From Escherichia phage vB_EcoM_ASO1A, in sequence record MZ726791.1: DNA of 64,000 nucleotides. The stretch is one strand, 5' to 3'. Under the pieces are notes generated by a model, which did not search any database, had not been told where the DNA came from, and saw only the letters and a list, made by a program, of their open reading frames with translations. Each line of letters opens with the position of its first letter. Positions within the stretch are counted from its first letter, which is position 1. Of the stretch, positions 1-8,999 are shown piece by piece. The translations under genes were made by a program, and so were the position numbers.

Positions 1-2292
1 ATGACACCTGAGATGTTCAGCCTTTTGAGTTCTGGTGTATATACCTTTAAAGAAAGGGCAGTGATTCGTGAACTGTCATGTAACGCAGTAGATGCTCAGA
101 AAGAAGCTGGAAAAGAGAACATCCCATTCCATGTGCATTTACCTACTCGTTTTGAGCCTTACTTCGAAGTTCGTGATTTTGGAACTGGATTGACTCATGA
201 TAAAGTTATGAGTTTGTACCTAAACTATGGAGCTTCTACGAAGAATGACTCTAATGACTACATTGGTGCAATGGGTATCGGCTCAAAGTCACCATTTGCA
301 ATTGCTCAGTCATTCACAGTATCTAGCTATGTTGATGGTGTTGTTAATAAGTACTCTGTTTATCTTGAGAATGGTATCCCTCAAGTAACTAAGCTGACAA
401 CTAACCCAACAAAAGAACCTAATGGTTTAGCTGTACGTGTGGCGGTTGCTGACCACCGTATCTCAAAGTTCTTTGAAGAAGCTGGGAATGTGTACTCATA
501 CTTCACTGTAAAACCAGAAAGTAATATTGAGTACGACGATGTATTAGCAGATATGAACGTCATTGCCCGTGAAGAAGGTGTTTATGATGCCATGATTCAT
601 AAGCACAGCTGGCGTTCTAGTGATAACAGGACAGAGTTTAATGTGGTGATGGGTAACATTGCCTACCCTGTTAACATGGAAGCATTACTTGGTGATGATT
701 TCTTCAAAGTATTGCCAGAATTTTTCCGTAGGAGCGTAGACCTTGTAAACATCTACATGCCTATTGGTTCAGTCGCTATTGCAGCTTCTCGTGAAGCATT
801 GCAGATGAATGACACGACAAAAAATGTTATCATTGAGGCTACTAAAAAGATAACTGAAGCAATTACAAAGGATGTTATCAAGAAAGTTAACAGTCAACCT
901 ACACTCATGGATGCTGCACAGGCTTATGCTGAGTTACGTTTGAACTCACGAGAGATGTTTAATGCTGTGTGTCCAAAGTTAGAGTGGGGAGGCGTTAAGC
1001 TTGATTCTCTGGAAGAAGAATTACTAAACATTCGTCGTGGAATTATCTACGCAGAAGACGGCTCAGTCATTTATGAACGTGACGGTAAAGGTAATATTAA
1101 GGTTGATAGGAACGGAAACAACATCCCTAAAGTAGATTATCTTTATGACCCAGTTGCTTATGTCAAGTTCAACTCTTTAGAGAGTAAGATTCGTGCAACA
1201 GCACTTTCCTACACTCAAGAGGCAAGTATGTTCAATATCTTTGGCGCAATGCGTAAAAGCCAAATTGAACAGTTTTTGTTTGTTATAAATGACCGTCGCA
1301 ATAAAAATGGTACTGAGAAGACTGTAGGACGCAACCAAATCTTGCGTGGTGCATGTCGAGACTATGCCAGTGAGTCAAGTCTGTTTCACAGATACAATGG
1401 TATTGTGTTTGTATTCTCGACTGAAAAAGAGTTAGATGATTTAATCAATCTACATAAACTTGATAAAAGCTTGTTAAAGATTGTGAAAATGTCTGATAAG
1501 GAGCACCATTACCAGCGCAAAGAAGCTGTAAGGGGTGTTGTAAAACTCTGGAAAGCTGTTCCAGCAGAAGGTGTAGCTTCCTATAAAGAGGTTTCAGAGG
1601 ACTTTGATACAATTGAAGAACCTCAGCTTTACATTAAGGCAGTTGGTGACACAGTTGATGGCGAATGTTTTTGCTCATCTCCAGAAGATGTAGCCAAGTC
1701 AGTTGCTAATGTTACAGGGAAGACAGTCTATGTTTTCCGAAAAGCAAATTGGAAAAAGATACCAGAAGACTGGATTGAAGTAGATGAGAAACTCTTGAAC
1801 GACAGCTTAACTGATGTTCATTGGATTAATCATAACAGGTATATGACACGTATCTATATGAATGGTGTCCTTGACCTTACAAGCAGTTGGATTATTGCCA
1901 GAAACTTTACGTTCAATAACAGGAAGATTTCTCGTGGCTATTGCTATTCACGGGATACAAACAAAACTATCTTCCTAGAAGGAAATGAAGATGCTGTAGA
2001 GGCAATGTTCGGTAAAATCCAATACGTTGCTGCACCATTTGCATACACTTATACTATTAGTGTATTGAAAACTTTGAAAGACTGTCTTGACAATGATACA
2101 AAGCTTTACAAGAAAATTAAGAAAGCTGGTGACCGTATGGTCATTAAGGTGACAAACTACCTTTCAAAAAGAAAACAAGAAAACTTCTTGCTTTCTCATT
2201 TAGATTGGAATAAAGTGTCACCCATCGAAGTGAGTAAGTTCTTAGGTTTTGATGTGAAGTGTGTTCCAGAAGGAACTACAGTTTACGATTAA
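1..2292 (+). CDS. rIIA: rIIA-like protein with GHKL-type ATPase motifs; N-terminus may be cut by window edge
   Basis: ORF begins at base 1; RELSCNAVDA (N-box-like) and RDFGTGL (G1-box-like) near N-terminus resemble T4 rIIA; followed by rIIB-like gene. Confidence 0.7.
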   Translation: MTPEMFSLLSSGVYTFKERAVIRELSCNAVDAQKEAGKENIPFHVHLPTRFEPYFEVRDFGTGLTHDKVMSLYLNYGASTKNDSNDYIGAMGIGSKSPFAIAQSFTVSSYVDGVVNKYSVYLENGIPQVTKLTTNPTKEPNGLAVRVAVADHRISKFFEEAGNVYSYFTVKPESNIEYDDVLADMNVIAREEGVYDAMIHKHSWRSSDNRTEFNVVMGNIAYPVNMEALLGDDFFKVLPEFFRRSVDLVNIYMPIGSVAIAASREALQMNDTTKNVIIEATKKITEAITKDVIKKVNSQPTLMDAAQAYAELRLNSREMFNAVCPKLEWGGVKLDSLEEELLNIRRGIIYAEDGSVIYERDGKGNIKVDRNGNNIPKVDYLYDPVAYVKFNSLESKIRATALSYTQEASMFNIFGAMRKSQIEQFLFVINDRRNKNGTEKTVGRNQILRGACRDYASESSLFHRYNGIVFVFSTEKELDDLINLHKLDKSLLKIVKMSDKEHHYQRKEAVRGVVKLWKAVPAEGVASYKEVSEDFDTIEEPQLYIKAVGDTVDGECFCSSPEDVAKSVANVTGKTVYVFRKANWKKIPEDWIEVDEKLLNDSLTDVHWINHNRYMTRIYMNGVLDLTSSWIIARNFTFNNRKISRGYCYSRDTNKTIFLEGNEDAVEAMFGKIQYVAAPFAYTYTISVLKTLKDCLDNDTKLYKKIKKAGDRMVIKVTNYLSKRKQENFLLSHLDWNKVSPIEVSKFLGFDVKCVPEGTTVYD

Positions 2293-2297
2293 AGTGT

Positions 2298-2327
2298 TTG
2301 ACAAGGGGCTTCAAAGCCCCTTAGAAT
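2298..2327 (+). promoter_or_regulatory. sigma70-like promoter upstream of rIIB-like gene
   Basis: TTGACA, 17-18 bp spacer containing GGGGCTTCAAAGCCCC hairpin, TAGAAT. Confidence 0.45.
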
Positions 2328-2371
2328 ATCCTCACAAAATGATTTATTAACTAACAAGAGAGAGTAATAAG

Positions 2372-3481
2372 ATGACTACTAAAACTAAAGCACAGATTGA
2401 CGCAGAAATTTACAAACTGGTTAAAGAAGGTAAGCTGACTAAAACAGCTATTGCACAGAAATTTAATACTTCAACCCGTTCAGTCGGTCGTGCTGTAGAG
2501 CGTCATGAAGCAACCTTAAAAGGTAAGAAAAAGGTAGCTTCTAAACCAGCTACGAAGACTTTGAAGCAAGTTGCTAAGACCTTTAAAAAGAAAGCTGACA
2601 AGCCAGTTAAAAAGGTTGTTAAAGATTCTGTACAGAAAGCTCCAGTAAATAAACTGCACGAAGCTATGCAGAAAGATGACAAGATTGAGTACATGATTAC
2701 TGGCGACTCTGTAATTATGACTTACGGTTCAGAATCTGAAATTGTTGAGTCTACTCATCCGAACTATCAAGAGATTGTAGTTCATGTTGTGAAAGGTGAG
2801 TTCAAGAAAGCCTTTGAACTGATGAACATTCGTAAGTCTATCGAAAACTTCACGCAGGGAGCTATCACAATCAAAGGTGATAAGCTATTCTACGGTGCTG
2901 TTGAGATGCGTTCTACTCTGGTTGACCGTATACTTCACATGATGAAGACTGGTGATAAAGGTTTTGAACGACTTGTAATGTTCTTCGAAAAACTGATGGA
3001 AAACCCATCTAAAGATTCTGTAGAACAACTTTGGGGATTCATATCTCACCTTGATGTTGAAATTGATGAAGAAGGCTACATCATTGGTTGGAAGAAAGTC
3101 TCTACTCGTGAAGGCAAGCTGGTTGACTCCCGCACCTGCAAAGTACCTAATGATTTGGGTAACATTGTAGAAATGCCACGTTGGATGGTTGATAATAACC
3201 GTAACGTGACTTGCTCTCAAGGTCTTCACGTTGGTGCTTGGGATTATGTTCGTTACTTCTCAGGTGATACAATTCTGAAGGTTCGTGTCCATCCACGAGA
3301 CGTTGTATCCGTACCAACTGATTACAACGATATGAAGATGCGCTCGTCTCGTTATGAAGTTGCAGCAATCGTTGATAATCAACGTAAAGTACTGAAAGCA
3401 TGGGATGGCAAGACTGAAGCTTTGCATGTCATCGTTGGCACTGCTGGTGAACTTATCTCTCAGCGTAAACGTGAAATCTAA
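2372..3481 (+). CDS. rIIB: rIIB-like protein
   Basis: Immediately downstream of rIIA-like gene; LFYGAVEMRSTLVDRIL segment resembles T4 rIIB from memory; lysine-rich N-terminal region. Confidence 0.55.
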   Translation: MTTKTKAQIDAEIYKLVKEGKLTKTAIAQKFNTSTRSVGRAVERHEATLKGKKKVASKPATKTLKQVAKTFKKKADKPVKKVVKDSVQKAPVNKLHEAMQKDDKIEYMITGDSVIMTYGSESEIVESTHPNYQEIVVHVVKGEFKKAFELMNIRKSIENFTQGAITIKGDKLFYGAVEMRSTLVDRILHMMKTGDKGFERLVMFFEKLMENPSKDSVEQLWGFISHLDVEIDEEGYIIGWKKVSTREGKLVDSRTCKVPNDLGNIVEMPRWMVDNNRNVTCSQGLHVGAWDYVRYFSGDTILKVRVHPRDVVSVPTDYNDMKMRSSRYEVAAIVDNQRKVLKAWDGKTEALHVIVGTAGELISQRKREI

Positions 3482-3496
3482 TAAGTAATTTCTTAA

Positions 3497-3522
3497 AAGG
3501 CTGCTTCGGCGGCCTTTTTTTA
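3497..3522 (+). terminator. rho-independent terminator
   Basis: AGGCTGCTTCGGCGGCCT hairpin followed by T7 run. Confidence 0.7.
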
Positions 3523-3582
3523 TTTGTATTTTGTGCAGAGTGCTGTATAATTGTTGTCACGATAAACTAAACAGGAGAACCA

Positions 3583-4131
3583 ATGAAGAAATTGATTCTA
3601 GGTTTGTGCTTAATGCTTACAGCACACTTATCTTATGCAGTTGACTGCCCAGAGCTATCAATTAGCCAAAAAGTAAACATGTTAAAAGCTTACCAGTATG
3701 GTGAGAACAACATGGGTAAAGGTTGGGGTATCACTCTAGCTGCTATAGCCTTACAAGAGTCAGAGTTAGGTCTGAAGGTAGAGAATAAAAAGACACATGA
3801 TTATGGTATTTTCCAGAATCACTTGAAGACTGTTGTAAAGCGTAACAAAATTAGTCCTAATGTGGCTAAAAAGAAACTCTTAAAAGACTTTAACTATGCT
3901 GCGAAGGAAACTCACAAAGAGCTTGAGTTTTGGACAAAGGTGCATGGTCAGCCAAAGTCAAAGAAGACTTTACAAAAAGTTTTAGCATCATATAATGCTG
4001 GGTATTCGTACAAAATCCCTAAAGCTAAGAAATATTCTCAAGATGTCTATAACAACATGAAAGTCATTGCTCAATGTGAATTTGCAACAAACATTTCTAA
4101 GGTAAACCATGAAAAAATTAAAAAAGTCTGA
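3583..4131 (+). CDS. secreted lytic transglycosylase-like protein (SLT motifs)
   Basis: N-terminal signal peptide MKKLILGLCLMLTAHLSYA; ES catalytic pair, GIFQ and SYNAGYS motifs spaced as in family-1 lytic transglycosylases; AGGAG RBS. Confidence 0.55.
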   Translation: MKKLILGLCLMLTAHLSYAVDCPELSISQKVNMLKAYQYGENNMGKGWGITLAAIALQESELGLKVENKKTHDYGIFQNHLKTVVKRNKISPNVAKKKLLKDFNYAAKETHKELEFWTKVHGQPKSKKTLQKVLASYNAGYSYKIPKAKKYSQDVYNNMKVIAQCEFATNISKVNHEKIKKV

Positions 4132-4804
4132 TGAAGTGCTGTGTCATGCTTACGACTTACATCCTCATGAGTTAGGTCTTGATTCCTGTGTATGGACTCC
4201 AGAACAGTGTAGGGATTTTGAAGACACTGCAAGAGAAGTTGTATGTTCACTCGAAGAGTTCCACACATCAGAGCCAATTGTGAATGTTGTAGATAAAGAG
4301 ACTGGACAAACTATAGGTGTAAGTCGTGATAGCTTAGTCATAGTCAATAAAGACCTTGTAGAAAAAGGTAACCTCATCTTAGCAGATATTGATGGTGTTC
4401 TTACAAATTTTAATCACGAAGATTGCTCAACGGAATTGACTGATGGGTCATTCTCACAGTACACTAATCTTCTTGACTCTGTAAGAGCAAAACCAACGTA
4501 TGTCTTTAGTATTATTGATGCAATTGCTAATCATGCTGCCATTGGACTCTTGACAGCGAGAGGTGAATCTCAGAGAATACCTACTGAGATGTTTTTAAGG
4601 CACAATATAGAGCATGATTACTTGCTTTTTATGCGTGGTTTTGGAACTAACTCTATAAGTGTAGAAAGTTTGAAAGTGAGGATGATTCAGTCTTGCATCC
4701 TGCCTTACTTTAATATAGTATGTTTTATAGAAGACACAGAGAAGAATGTGCAGAAGGTGAACAGAATCCTTCCACACATTAAAACCATGTTAGTTAAACA
4801 TTGA
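4109..4804 (+). CDS. HAD-superfamily hydrolase-like protein
   Basis: DIDGVLT (DxDGx motif I) and LLTARG motif; overlaps upstream gene by 23 nt. Confidence 0.4.
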   Translation: MKKLKKSDEVLCHAYDLHPHELGLDSCVWTPEQCRDFEDTAREVVCSLEEFHTSEPIVNVVDKETGQTIGVSRDSLVIVNKDLVEKGNLILADIDGVLTNFNHEDCSTELTDGSFSQYTNLLDSVRAKPTYVFSIIDAIANHAAIGLLTARGESQRIPTEMFLRHNIEHDYLLFMRGFGTNSISVESLKVRMIQSCILPYFNIVCFIEDTEKNVQKVNRILPHIKTMLVKH

Positions 4805-4814
4805 GAGAAAACTT

Positions 4815-5279
4815 ATGAACAATATCATTACGGTAGCACTGGACGATACGGTAAACAAATCTGCAATAGTTCGTAAAATGATTCAAGGTAACTTTGAAGG
4901 TAAAATTTTTCGTGCTGTTAATGTAAAAGCTGATGGCAGCATTCGTGAATATCGTGCATTATTGAATGTTAAAAAACACGTAAAAGGTGCTGGTTCAACT
5001 ACTGCACACAAAGAAAACCTGATGACTATCTATGATATGGGCAAGGCTTCAGAGTTAGGTGCTGAAGGTATCGTTAAAGAAGGTGCTCCGTATCGCTCTT
5101 TCAATCTGGAAACTACTCTTATGCTTTCCTTTACAAGTGGTTCTAAAACAATCACTTATCTCTTTACTGATGCTGCAACGGTATCTGCTATTAAGGATAG
5201 CACTGTCAAAGCTGGCGTAGTTGCTGCTGCAAAAGCTTCTTCGATGGCTGCGAATATCCTTGCTAAAGTCCTCGGTTAA
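4815..5279 (+). CDS. hypothetical protein
   Basis: 154-aa ORF ending before hairpin terminator at 5291. Confidence 0.45.
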   Translation: MNNIITVALDDTVNKSAIVRKMIQGNFEGKIFRAVNVKADGSIREYRALLNVKKHVKGAGSTTAHKENLMTIYDMGKASELGAEGIVKEGAPYRSFNLETTLMLSFTSGSKTITYLFTDAATVSAIKDSTVKAGVVAAAKASSMAANILAKVLG

Positions 5280-5290
5280 GGTTAAGATAC

Positions 5291-5313
5291 AGGCTCCTTC
5301 GGGAGCCTTTTTC
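5291..5313 (+). terminator. rho-independent terminator
   Basis: AGGCTCCTTCGGGAGCCT hairpin plus T run. Confidence 0.7.
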
Positions 5314-5331
5314 ATTTTAGGAGATTGTTAA

Positions 5332-5679
5332 ATGACATTTAAAGAGTTCTGTCAAGCTACTTTCATAATTGTTTTCTTAGTTGGTGCAGGTGTCTGGGGA
5401 GGATACTCTTACAGAGACTATCAAGTTGCTGAAACTGAGCTAAATAATGAGAAACTAATAAGTGTTGCTAAAGATGCTTATCAGGAAGGTTTAGCCACAC
5501 TCAGCACCAATTACAAAAATGATTTGAAAGATGTGCTTGCTAAGAATAAGCATACAAAAGAGGTACTAACATATGAAAAAACTAAGCCAGAGTTTTATAA
5601 TGTTTGTGTTACTGATAACTATGTCAGGGTGTTCAACGAACAAAGTGAGCAGTACATTCAAAAACTCCCAAGTAAGTGA
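5332..5679 (+). CDS. membrane protein with N-terminal TM helix (i-spanin-like architecture, tentative)
   Basis: AGGAG RBS; hydrophobic segment FIIVFLVGAGVWGG near N-terminus; 3' end overlapped by lipoprotein gene in +1 frame. Confidence 0.4.
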   Translation: MTFKEFCQATFIIVFLVGAGVWGGYSYRDYQVAETELNNEKLISVAKDAYQEGLATLSTNYKNDLKDVLAKNKHTKEVLTYEKTKPEFYNVCVTDNYVRVFNEQSEQYIQKLPSK

Positions 5680-5842
5680 GGGTGATAAGTACACCCAAGA
5701 AGAATCACGGTATATCATCAAAGGCAACACAGGCAGCGATGTAGCAGCAGCCCTTGAGTTCTATCGTGACGGCTTTTACCAGTGCACAATCAAAGCTAAC
5801 AACCTTATTGACATGATTTTATTAGGGAATAAGCAGCAATGA
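5573..5842 (+). CDS. lipoprotein (o-spanin-like architecture, tentative)
   Basis: AGAGG RBS; signal peptide with lipobox ITMSGC; starts inside preceding ORF in +1 frame. Confidence 0.4.
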   Translation: MKKLSQSFIMFVLLITMSGCSTNKVSSTFKNSQVSEGDKYTQEESRYIIKGNTGSDVAAALEFYRDGFYQCTIKANNLIDMILLGNKQQ

Positions 5843-6108
5843 CAGAGAATCAAGATACTTTTTACGTAGAAGGGTACTTACTGTTACCACGACCAAAAGA
5901 GACTTATATGCGAATTGATTTCTCACCAACCATTATGGATAATGTGATGTGCCATATCTTTATGCAAGGTGTCACAGCACAGCTTAAACATGTTGGTAAA
6001 GAGTGCAAAATAAAGGTTGACACTCATCCAGAAATCAAAGAGAATCACTACACATGGTTCTTACCAGATTCTAAAGAAATCTTAGCAGTTCTTAAAACGA
6101 GGAAGTAG
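5839..6108 (+). CDS. hypothetical protein
   Basis: 89-aa ORF, start overlaps previous stop. Confidence 0.4.
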   Translation: MTENQDTFYVEGYLLLPRPKETYMRIDFSPTIMDNVMCHIFMQGVTAQLKHVGKECKIKVDTHPEIKENHYTWFLPDSKEILAVLKTRK

Positions 6109-6110
6109 CT

Positions 6111-6437
6111 ATGCAGATTAATGGAAGAGACTTTGTAGCCGTTTACTATGATAACAATAAAGAAGTTGGTGTAGCACAGGTAACCTATGGCAATGGTAAG
6201 TGGCTATATGGAACAATCGCAGTAGTAGGAACAAGAAGTGATACAAAAACTTTTAAAGATTGTGTTGACCTTCTTGAAGAATCCATCCACAATCATTGGT
6301 GTCTGATATGGATGACTGATAACGAAGTGATGGAGCGTTTCAAAAAGATTGATATCAACATTGACAGTATTGAGCATGTTGATTTATATGAACTAACTGA
6401 GAAGGTAAACTATGAAAGTAATACTAGCCAGAGATAA
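6111..6437 (+). CDS. hypothetical protein
   Basis: 108-aa ORF with GAGGA RBS, tightly packed. Confidence 0.45.
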   Translation: MQINGRDFVAVYYDNNKEVGVAQVTYGNGKWLYGTIAVVGTRSDTKTFKDCVDLLEESIHNHWCLIWMTDNEVMERFKKIDINIDSIEHVDLYELTEKVNYESNTSQR

Positions 6438-6639
6438 AAAGACACGAAAACTTATAAGGTCAGCAGTATTCATTGGACGAAATGAGGTCATCCCATTTAC
6501 AGCAAATGATGTGATAGCTTACAGGAAGAACTTAGTATTCACTGACTGCTTACGTGGCTTCATCTCTGAACCATTGGAAGACTTTAAAAGTCGTTGTGGT
6601 AAAGGTATCATCATTCAAGAGGCAATTATTCATGGCTGA
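6412..6639 (+). CDS. hypothetical protein
   Basis: 75-aa ORF, AAGGT RBS. Confidence 0.4.
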   Translation: MKVILARDKKTRKLIRSAVFIGRNEVIPFTANDVIAYRKNLVFTDCLRGFISEPLEDFKSRCGKGIIIQEAIIHG

Positions 6640-6832
6640 CTTCTGTAAAGACTGTTCTATCGAAATGTTCGGACGTGATACAGGTGACTTAAAAGGTCTT
6701 ATCACTGAAGATGATTTTAAAGCTGGTTATGCAATGCCAGTAATCTGTGAAGGTTGTGGGTGCATCTGGGTAGACCATGAGGGGCAACGTGTAAAACCTT
6801 CAGAAGATAAAGAATCTTGGGAGAGATGCTAA
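6632..6832 (+). CDS. small Cys-rich protein (possible zinc ribbon)
   Basis: Internal ATG with AGAGG RBS inside track ORF 6554..6832; CKDC and CEGCGC pairs. Confidence 0.35.
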   Translation: MADFCKDCSIEMFGRDTGDLKGLITEDDFKAGYAMPVICEGCGCIWVDHEGQRVKPSEDKESWERC

Positions 6833-7618
6833 ATGGGTATTGTAAAAATCATCAATGGTGATATCTTTGCTGCATTTGATAAAGGTAAGTTTGACATCAT
6901 TGGTCATGGTTGTAACTGCATGAACCTAATGGGCGCAGGTATCGCTGACAAGATTTCTAAACTTTACCCAAAAGCATATGAGACCGATACAGAAGTTTAT
7001 CTCTATGCAGGTGGTATAGGTCACAAACCCTGTGAGAATTTACTAGGTAATTTCTCTGTAGCACGCTTAAAACAAGGTCGTATAGCTAACCTTTACACTC
7101 AGCTTAAGACTGGTAAAGATGCCCGATACAGTGCTTTAGAGTCATCTTTGAAGCAACTTAACAGATACTGTGAAGTTAATCAGTTGAAGAAAGTTGGTTT
7201 ACCTATGATTGGTGCAGGTATCGGTGGACTTGACCCTCAAGCCGTCACAGTTATCATCAATCAGGTGATGAAGAGTGTAGATGTTTATCTATATGTCTAT
7301 GAAGGAGAGATGTACCACAAGTTACTCTCAGGTTGGAAGAACTACTGTGAACCAGAATACTTTGCAGGTGTAGCAGTGTTCACAGATAACGCAGTTACCC
7401 TCTTCAGACGAAGAAAAGGTAAGATACATCAAAGTAACCCTCCGGTTGAAAAGATGTCTCTAAGTAACGCTCTAGTTACCCACCTGTCAAAGAGCAATCA
7501 CAGAATTGCTGTAACATTTGGTAGTGATGCAGAAGCTTATATCTATGCAAGAACTGATGAGGATATTGAGGCAATCTTCTCTTCACCAGAAGTTACCTTC
7601 TTAGACGCAAAGAACTAA
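6833..7618 (+). CDS. macro-domain protein (ADP-ribose binding/hydrolase-like)
   Basis: NGDIF...DIIGHGCNCMNLMGAGIA and LPMIGAGIGGL segments match macro-domain signature pattern (GDIT...NAAN...GGGV; FPAISTGxYG). Confidence 0.55.
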   Translation: MGIVKIINGDIFAAFDKGKFDIIGHGCNCMNLMGAGIADKISKLYPKAYETDTEVYLYAGGIGHKPCENLLGNFSVARLKQGRIANLYTQLKTGKDARYSALESSLKQLNRYCEVNQLKKVGLPMIGAGIGGLDPQAVTVIINQVMKSVDVYLYVYEGEMYHKLLSGWKNYCEPEYFAGVAVFTDNAVTLFRRRKGKIHQSNPPVEKMSLSNALVTHLSKSNHRIAVTFGSDAEAYIYARTDEDIEAIFSSPEVTFLDAKN

Positions 7619-7679
7619 GAAACTCTGTAGGATATTCACAATAGCCTAAGCCTTTCTTATCTGGTAAATTTTTCAGGTA

Positions 7680-7880
7680 AGGAGGGCTTTTTCATTTCAG
7701 ATTTGTGCAGGTAGAGTTCTGTAGAGAAATCTATAGAGAAAATTTTGAACTCCAAAGAGAAAATTCATTTTCAAACTGTGCAGGTAATCTCCAAAGAGCT
7801 TTTTCATTTTCAAAACGTGCAGACCCCGCTCAGGTCGGGCAAGAAAAATCATTTTAGAATTGTGCAGGTAGGTTTTTATA
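7680..7880. repeat. four imperfect tandem repeats (~45-55 bp) ending in TGTGCAGGTA
   Basis: Recurring TTTCATTT..N..TGTGCAGGTA units at about 7691, 7757, 7803 and 7848. Confidence 0.6.
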
Positions 7881-7888
7881 GACAGCCA

Positions 7889-7929
7889 GCCCAACCCCTC
7901 TCCCCCTCTTACTCCCCCTCTCCCAAAAA
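7889..7929. repeat. pyrimidine (C/T)-rich tract
   Basis: AGCCCAACCCCTCTCCCCCTCTTACTCCCCCTCTCCC, compositionally unlike surrounding AT-rich DNA. Confidence 0.6.
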
Positions 7930-8046
7930 GTCAAGAGAAAAATTTGTAGCGGATTGAAAAATAATTCTTGATTTGCGTTCTGTTTTGTGGTAGTCGTGCG
8001 CACCCGTTTCATTACAGTTTTGCCAAAAATATTTTTAAAATTTTTA

Positions 8047-8075
8047 TTGACTCTTTGAACGTGGTTATCTAATAT
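8047..8075 (+). promoter_or_regulatory. strong sigma70-like early promoter
   Basis: TTGACT, 17 bp spacer, TAATAT. Confidence 0.6.
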
Positions 8076-8079
8076 TTAC

Positions 8080-8138
8080 ATCAACGGGGAGGGAATGACC
8101 TTCCCCACTAAATAAAATCCTAAACTGGAGATTCAAAA
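8080..8138 (+). promoter_or_regulatory. conserved leader cassette type A (copy 1)
   Basis: ATCAACGGGGAGGGAATGACCTTCCCCACTAAATAAA..CTAAACTGGAGATTC hairpin plus SD directly before ATG. Confidence 0.7.
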
Positions 8139-8327
8139 ATGGCATCAAGAAAAATTAAAGTTGGCGATGAGGTTAACATTAAGCACGAATACTCTTACAA
8201 AATGCTAACTATACGCTCTTATAAGGTTTATCAGGTGGAAGCTATCCACAAAGATAATACTTTTTCCTTAAAAGGGTATAGCGAACGTTTCCCTGCTGAA
8301 CTCTTTGAGAAATGGAGCGCGAAATAA
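8139..8327 (+). CDS. hypothetical early protein
   Basis: ORF directly after type A leader. Confidence 0.5.
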   Translation: MASRKIKVGDEVNIKHEYSYKMLTIRSYKVYQVEAIHKDNTFSLKGYSERFPAELFEKWSAK

Positions 8328-8533
8328 TGCTTTACAGTCGTGAATTGATGGTTACAACTAACGTTAACACAAAGGTAAAACGTTTTTACATGCAAATTTG
8401 TGGCGTATGGTCTAGAATATCAGAAGCTGACTATTGCAACTATGTAGAAACAGCTATAAACTCTAATTGCTACCTTACAAGAAATACTAAGAATTTTACA
8501 AGGCAAACAGCGATTTACTATTACGATAAATAA
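8327..8533 (+). CDS. hypothetical early protein
   Basis: ATG at 8327 with GGAG RBS inside track ORF 8312..8533. Confidence 0.4.
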   Translation: MLYSRELMVTTNVNTKVKRFYMQICGVWSRISEADYCNYVETAINSNCYLTRNTKNFTRQTAIYYYDK

Positions 8534-8620
8534 AAGTACTTTACAAGGGGCTTATAGTTCGATAAAGTAAGCCTCAGATAAAGAGCTTTACCACTCAATC
8601 CTAAATTGGAGAACTTAAAA
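8534..8620 (+). promoter_or_regulatory. conserved leader cassette type B (copy 1)
   Basis: AGTACTTTACAAGGGGCTTATAGTTCGATAAAGTAAGCC.CAGATAAAGAGCTTTACCACT..CCTAAATTGGAGA. Confidence 0.7.
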
Positions 8621-8914
8621 ATGGCTATTATCAAAAACGTTGTAATTACTGCAAAGACTCGTGATGACGCTCGCGTTATGGCTAAAAAGTTATGCGGGAA
8701 AGTGGTTGACAATGGAAAACAATCTGCTGTAAGGTGGGGCGTGAAGGTTGATAAACAGTTGAAGTTAAAAAATTCACCGATAAACCTTTTTACATGTGTA
8801 AACACTATCGGGAAGACAAATGTATACACGAAAAAGGCATACATTAGACGCGTAGCATTAACATCCCCCATTCGTACAATGAGAAGTTATGCAAAGCTGA
8901 AAATTAACAAATAA
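8621..8914 (+). CDS. hypothetical early protein
   Basis: ATG 8621 after GGAGA RBS; track start 8606 is a TTG inside the leader. Confidence 0.5.
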   Translation: MAIIKNVVITAKTRDDARVMAKKLCGKVVDNGKQSAVRWGVKVDKQLKLKNSPINLFTCVNTIGKTNVYTKKAYIRRVALTSPIRTMRSYAKLKINK

Positions 8915-8999
8915 AGTACTTTACAGGGGGCTTAAAAGCTGATACCTTAAGCCCCAGATAAAGAGCTTTACCACTAAATCCTAAACTGGAGATTCAAAA
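8915..8999 (+). promoter_or_regulatory. conserved leader cassette type B (copy 2)
   Basis: Same motif family as 8534-8620. Confidence 0.65.

Follow-up and report, generated by a model that had tools for sequence, protein, structure and literature searches.

Phage macrodomain proteins that protect against the host toxin-antitoxin system DarTG2 have recently been defined as AdfM, for "anti-DarT factor, macrodomain". For phage T4, transposon screening and a clean tk.4 knockout revealed that this gene is needed only on DarTG2 hosts (bioRxiv 10.1101/2025.11.20.689424). The PhiKZ protein gp104 strips DarT2-installed ADP-ribose from DNA in vitro and rescues cells from DarT2 toxicity, and the AdfM of PhiKZ/PhiPA3 is needed for growth on DarTG2 hosts (PMC13309987). 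Removal of thymidine ADP-ribose from DNA has also been established for SCO6735, DarG, and TARG1 (PMC9411070). Here, we analyzed a gene of Escherichia phage vB_EcoM_ASO1A that encodes a macrodomain protein (positions 6833–7618 of a 64,000-nucleotide stretch of sequence record MZ726791.1, referred to as the window in the following). We consider it on balance probable that the gene product is an AdfM-type eraser of DarT2-dependent thymidine ADP-ribosylation on single-stranded phage DNA that makes use of a Gln-type chemistry.

Identity and class of the macrodomain protein

The open reading frame (ORF) codes for two domains, and the motifs of the first were located by alignment to its relatives.

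6833–7618, plus strand: complete coding sequence of the macrodomain protein, an ATG-started ORF (261 amino acids, 28.9 kDa, isoelectric point 8.4)
6833–7303, plus strand: macrodomain, residues 1–157, ALC1-like or TARG1/DarG class
6902–6946, plus strand: motif 1, GHGCNCMNLMGAGIA, residues 24–38, with the N28 codon at 6914–6916 (alignments)
7088–7102, plus strand: NLYTQ motif, residues 86–90 (alignments)
7202–7234, plus strand: diphosphate and distal-ribose loop PMIGAGIGGLD, residues 124–134 (alignments)
7304–7615, plus strand: C-terminal orphan domain, residues 158–261

A preliminary description, made from the sequence alone, had proposed a macro domain with two glycine-rich signatures. Both segments are present, and the Pfam profile PF01661 (Macro) was matched above threshold with an E value of 1e-7 (32.4 bits versus a cut-off of 22), residues 25–141 covering profile positions 2–117 of 118. 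The match to PHROG 335 had an E value of 4.7e-113. When a profile built from 27 homologues was run against the PDB, macrodomain structures were matched, namely TARG1 (2e-17), DarG from Mycobacterium tuberculosis (3.3e-16), SCO6735 (1.4e-15), Poa1p (2.7e-15), BT1257 (1.3e-14), and DarG from Thermus aquaticus (7.7e-14); the profile check of the subfamily thus returned the ALC1-like (TARG1/DarG) class, and the outcome of no macrodomain hit, which would have spoken against the initial proposal, was not seen. The AlphaFold2 model of the full-length protein (predicted local distance difference test [pLDDT] 92.4, predicted template modeling score [pTM] 0.90) exhibits the three-layer α/β/α macro fold with both Gly-rich loops lining the ADP-ribose cleft. 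In NCBIfam and PADLOC, DarG was the sole match, restricted to the macro part and far under the equivalog cut-off (NF048014, 47.5 bits versus 250, profile positions 4–150 of 338 only). The closest relatives in both sequence and structure belong to the ALC1-like class (TARG1, DarG, SCO6735, Poa1p) and not to the MacroD, PARG, or macroH2A types. Because of the Pfam, PHROG, PDB-profile, AlphaFold2, NCBIfam, and PADLOC results, the protein is assigned as a macrodomain of the ALC1-like (TARG1/DarG) class.

A tblastn search with the macro part retrieved 2854 phage records; among the matches listed, those from T4-like phages adjoin vs, which is the position of tk.4 in T4. T4 Tk.4 aligned with residues 3–157 (34% identity, E value 3e-24) and has all motifs in common with the macrodomain protein (HGCNC...MG.G.A, NLYTQ, and P.IGAGIG); it is likewise a stand-alone phage macrodomain. 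The similarity to PhiKZ gp104 was weak (23% identity, E value 3e-4), and PHROG 335 comprises all three proteins. Within the pair formed by T4 and the Felix-O1-like phages, only T4 Tk.4 has a tested phenotype. It differs from the protein described here by its size of 155 amino acids, by the lack of a C-terminal domain, and by its location in the tk-vs region, whereas the present gene lies in the rIIA/rIIB region.

Active site, proposed function, and alternatives

Active-site residues were compared in a joint MAFFT alignment, in which the position of the Gln discussed below agreed with that in HMMER and BLAST alignments. N28 aligned with N22 of DarG, N23 of PhiKZ AdfM, and the Asn of BT1257, with N27 being the equivalent in SCO6735. 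Q90, the last residue of NLYTQ, aligned with the catalytic Lys residues K84 of TARG1, K80 of DarG, and K78 of PhiKZ AdfM, and a Gln occupies the same column in T4 Tk.4, which also has NLYTQ, and in BT1257 (NMIGQ). Both N28 and Q90 are invariant in 27 of 27 family members, and Gln was present at the Q90 position in 54 of 59 bacterial relatives. The PMIGAGIGGLD loop resembles that of DarG (PPLGAGNGGL) and places G131 at the position of TARG1 D125. As Q90 and G131 occupy the columns of Lys84 and Asp125, the catalytic dyad of human TARG1/OARD1 is absent, and TARG1 further differs by a Ser at the N28 site.

SCO6735 and BT1257 likewise combine a Gln in place of the catalytic Lys with a conserved Asn that lies two strands apart from it; the equivalence to SCO6735 rests on BT1257, which is 54% identical to it, and on the alignment in PMC9411070. 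Among PDB sequences, BT1257 was also the one that T4 Tk.4 matched best. In SCO6735, Gln85 takes the catalytic-Lys position; the Q85A variant is inactive and N27S nearly so (PMC9411070). The enzyme exceeds DarG and TARG1 in the rate at which it removes thymidine-linked ADP-ribose from DNA, it rescues Escherichia coli from DarT, and a water-mediated mechanism with the distal ribose positioned by the Gln was proposed (PMC9411070). SCO6735 and BT1257 are also alike in being stand-alone hydrolases that provide "orphan" protection against DarT-type toxins (PMC9411070). They differ from the phage protein in that they are bacterial, lack the C-terminal domain, and extend the "mobile loop" following the Gln by five to six residues; in the phage protein this loop is short as in DarG and TARG1, which is seen as a six-column gap in the alignment with BT1257.

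A distance-based neighbor-joining tree split the sequences into a Gln-type and a Lys-type group. The former comprises the two-domain proteins of Ounavirinae, T4 Tk.4, other phage singletons, bacterial proteins with an NAYTQ motif, and BT1257; the latter the DarG proteins together with PhiKZ gp104. From this grouping, two mechanistic types of phage AdfM are predicted at the sequence level, a DarG-like Lys type (PhiKZ) and an SCO6735-like Gln type (T4 and Felix-O1-like phages), with the macrodomain protein described here belonging to the T4/Gln type. PhiKZ gp104 shares the active-site Asn (N23 there, N28 here) but keeps the DarG-type K78; it is moreover imported into the phage nucleus and lacks the C-terminal domain (PMC13309987). 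DarG of DarTG2 (T. aquaticus, M. tuberculosis, E. coli) has K80 in place of the Gln and forms a toxin-antitoxin operon with darT, whereas the gene described here is virus-borne and has no darT among its neighboring ORFs.

The bacterial relatives were retrieved by scanning one genome per species, with the best 80 of 91 kept and the gene delimited in 59. They are mostly stand-alone proteins of about 151 amino acids with NAYTQ and the same Asn, encoded in Rhodobacteraceae, Hyphomicrobiaceae, Planctomycetota, Kingella, and Kineococcus. At the 59 loci, no neighbor family occurred more than eight times, the neighbors not having been scanned with a DarT model; the families that were shared (at up to eight loci) are explained by synteny within taxa or by spurious ORFs in high-GC sequence. 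Our searches retrieved no characterized member of this short-loop bacterial group. Judged from these neighborhoods, the relatives of about 151 amino acids resemble SCO6735-like orphan hydrolases rather than toxin-antitoxin partners, and the NAYTQ proteins may be orphan anti-DarT hydrolases.

In the mechanism proposed for the phage protein, which would act as a phage DNA ADP-ribosyl glycohydrolase, the macrodomain would bind the ADP-ribose that the host toxin DarT2 has placed on thymidine of single-stranded phage DNA. Cleavage of the ribose–base bond would release ADP-ribose and restore the base, so that replication could go on in DarTG2-carrying hosts. As in SCO6735, N28 would lock Q90, Q90 would position the distal ribose, and water would perform the chemistry in place of the catalytic Lys of DarG/TARG1. 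We infer thymidine-ADP-ribose on DNA as the substrate, an anti-DarTG2 role in vivo, and early timing, the protein being probably made early in infection. An ADP-ribose eraser directed against host ADP-ribosyltransferase (ART) defenses had been suggested in the preliminary description, and this idea is strengthened by the closest characterized relatives, T4 Tk.4 and PhiKZ AdfM, which act in this way.

DarTG2 is present in the host species. A darT-darG operon of the macro type was recovered from E. coli, coding for DarT (218 amino acids) and DarG (359 amino acids) with the motifs NTVNTVGVMGKGIA, NFPTK, and PPLGAGNGGL. This allele, labeled DarT/DarG in RefSeq, was found in 249 of 5426 complete E. 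coli genomes (~4.6%). In NZ_OL790696.1 (locus L086, 1827–3547), the operon is located directly downstream of the type I restriction specificity gene hsdS; the record is filed as a 4.8-Mb "plasmid" and is evidently a chromosome.

Several points weigh against the assignment as an AdfM-type eraser. No more than 34% of the residues are identical to those of T4 AdfM, and the evidence for T4 consists of genetic data from a preprint. In the literature searched, neither a link between DarTG and Felixounavirus, nor an experiment on a Felixounavirus protein, nor essentiality data from Bas63 for this gene were found. Since the protein lacks the catalytic Lys of DarG, the mechanism of the latter is not directly transferable. 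The bacterial relatives stand alone with no conserved toxin neighbor, and the C-terminal domain has no counterpart in T4, so the protein may have an additional or a different function. Finally, ALC1-like macrodomains act on multiple substrates: next to DNA, TARG1 and SCO6735 hydrolyze Glu/Asp-ADP-ribosylated proteins and uracil-ADP-ribosylated RNA.

This substrate range bears on the alternative that the phage protein erases ADP-ribosylation of protein (at Glu/Asp) or RNA (at the uracil base) and thereby counters other ART defenses or toxins, or tunes ADP-ribosylation made by the phage itself. The RNA modification is reversed by DarG as well, TARG1 additionally removes ADP-ribose from phosphate ends, and RNA-targeting ART defenses such as CmdTAC exist. 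However, SCO6735 strongly prefers DNA over protein substrates (PMC9411070) and is inactive on RNA ADP-ribosylated at the 5'-phosphate or 2'-OH (PMC11833690), the adenine modification by CmdT has so far been described as irreversible, and the one known genetic phenotype in the clade is DarTG2-specific. In addition, no phage ART was found, and the ORF at 11992–12534 has no ART signature. Taken together, we regard this alternative as unlikely. The same ORF had been named earlier as a phage transferase that the macrodomain protein might regulate; as it showed no similarity in Pfam, PADLOC, or PDB and is a member of PHROG 3303 of unknown function, it was dismissed as an ART partner, and the suggestion was dropped.

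Processing or sequestration of small ADP-ribose derivatives (ADP-ribose-1''-phosphate, O-acetyl-ADP-ribose, or Thoeris gcADPR or His-ADPR) appears to be quite unlikely. Within the class, yeast Poa1p acts on a small molecule, ADP-ribose-1''-phosphate, and this activity is the source of the widespread "phosphatase" annotation, which together with "hypothetical protein" is what public records give for the gene. Poa1p differs from the phage protein by a Ser instead of the Gln after the conserved Thr (FTSS), and nothing points to a phosphatase activity of the latter.

The C-terminal domain

Residues 158–261 form one helix, six β-strands, and a C-terminal helix. In the model of the full-length protein (pTM 0.90), this domain is confidently folded and packed on the macrodomain; modeled alone, it reached a pLDDT of 77. 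It had no match in Pfam and, among the PHROGs, matched its own family only. An exhaustive hidden Markov model (HMM) search of 1.84e9 representatives retrieved only macro-fused homologs and one truncated gene call (P0032); weaker HMM matches were rejected as β-propeller or tandem-repeat artifacts. The PDB contained no relative of the fold, and Foldseek against BFVD yielded the SUSP2 homolog only. None of the bacterial relatives (best 80 of 91) gave a match that reached the end of the domain. No split-gene counterpart was present in T4 between 54 and 64 kb (nrdC.9 to vs.7), nor elsewhere in the window.

In the phage collection, the C-terminal domain was detected in 243 records, always at a coverage of 80% or more, nearly all from Felix-O1-type phages of Escherichia, Salmonella, Shigella, or Citrobacter. 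In a relative that is 35% identical, the two-domain gene likewise follows rIIA-rIIB. As an orphan fold, the C-terminal domain is confined to phages of the Ounavirinae type, where it never occurs without being fused to this macrodomain, and it diverges faster than the latter (54% versus ~80% identity to the homolog P0002). A copy with 90% identity was observed in the record of Staphylococcus phage SA1 (GU169904.1, 128378–128683), and single records labeled Campylobacter contained it too; the SA1 and Campylobacter-labeled records are probably mislabeled or chimeric.

As guesses, the domain could serve the targeting to single-stranded DNA, the replisome, or the substrate, or it could bind a toxin. 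The last of these would be central if the protein blocked DarT2 or another ART stoichiometrically, with the C-terminal domain as the binding module and hydrolysis secondary or absent, convergent with the DarG C-terminal domain and ICP1 AdfB. DarG indeed consists of a macrodomain and a DarT-binding domain, ICP1 AdfB acts by binding DarT, and the catalytically dead Q85A variant of SCO6735 still inhibits DarT (PMC9411070); the C-terminal domain, in turn, stays at full length in the 243 records despite its faster divergence. However, it resembled neither the C-terminal domain of E. coli DarG (hhalign probability 0.05%; the two are unrelated) nor anything in the PDB, T4 AdfM works without such a domain, and the fact that N28, Q90, and the Gly-rich loops are strictly conserved argues for retained catalysis. 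Neutralization mainly by binding is very improbable in our view.

An eraser in which catalysis is retained could still be one half of a two-module counter-defense, in which the Gln-type hydrolase is joined to a new, fast-evolving, β-rich domain that binds and blocks DarT2-like toxins or tethers the eraser to single-stranded DNA or the replisome. The architecture of DarG would then have been rebuilt convergently from unrelated parts. We put this forward tentatively, as a rather unlikely possibility. If it were true, the C-terminal domain would represent an unseen toxin-binding or targeting fold, and it could explain how a single phage protein copes with diverse DarT alleles.

A metagenomic protein of 339 amino acids (P0026) was found to contain the same Gln-type macrodomain followed by a different C-terminal region with a match to PF20274. 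This fusion suggests that the macrodomain is recombined with various accessory modules.

Genomic context and implications

The signals around the gene are as follows.

6819–6825, plus strand: Shine-Dalgarno-like GGGAGAG, 7 nucleotides before the ATG (read from the sequence)
7648–7689, plus strand: intrinsic-terminator-like hairpin of 17 pairs with a T-run, 30 nucleotides past the stop codon, also annotated in MZ726792.1

The macrodomain gene ends a cluster of co-directional genes, and its neighbors are small phage ORFs assigned to PHROGs of unknown function. Because the TAA stop codon of the preceding gene (6830–6832) directly abuts the ATG, translational coupling of the two genes is suggested. 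Beyond the terminator, the intergenic region 7692–7882 harbors three copies of the 21-nucleotide motif TCATTTTNRAANTGTGCAGGT (at 7692, 7765, and 7849), which lie inside 34-nucleotide direct repeats with a spacing of approximately 40–85 nucleotides. No copy would be expected by chance, and no further one was present in the window. Among relatives this region is prone to insertions and deletions, with megablast matches broken into several pieces. The repeats may form a regulatory or protein-binding array.

The window represents a Felixounavirus genome, and the 3 kb around the gene are a near-perfect match to Escherichia phage vB_EcoM_ASO1B (MZ726792.1), where the equivalent gene is ASO1B_011, annotated as "hypothetical protein". 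Positions 1–15000 differed from MZ726792.1 in one base (99.99% identity), and the remainder was 94–98% identical with insertions and deletions. The window is thus a close relative or recombinant of ASO1B, in a mosaic relationship to it and distinct from MZ726792.1. Owing to the near-perfect match, the annotation of MZ726792.1 can be used near the gene; further along the coordinates drift, as exemplified by a 471-amino acid ORF at 24665–26080 of the window versus 24908–26323 in MZ726792.1.

The sole difference within the first 15 kb (base 7227) falls in the macrodomain gene. It is a missense difference in the codon of residue 132 (7226–7228), which reads GGA (Gly) in the window and GAA (Glu) in ASO1B, and it lies in the Gly-rich loop (GAGIG[G/E]LD). 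Relatives mostly have Gly at this position and a few have Ala; a Lys was found in T4 Tk.4 and two others. A sequencing error, neutral variation, or selection on the macrodomain gene could account for the difference.

Typing, biocontrol, and therapy directed at Salmonella and E. coli make wide use of felixounaviruses. The macrodomain protein is a further member of the recently defined AdfM kind, and its probable AdfM-type assignment against DarTG2 provides a testable host-range determinant. The existence of two AdfM types, as predicted here, would matter for the choice of catalytic-dead controls and for inhibitor work. The role of the compact orphan C-terminal domain could point to a novel mode by which ADP-ribosyltransferase toxins are targeted or neutralized.
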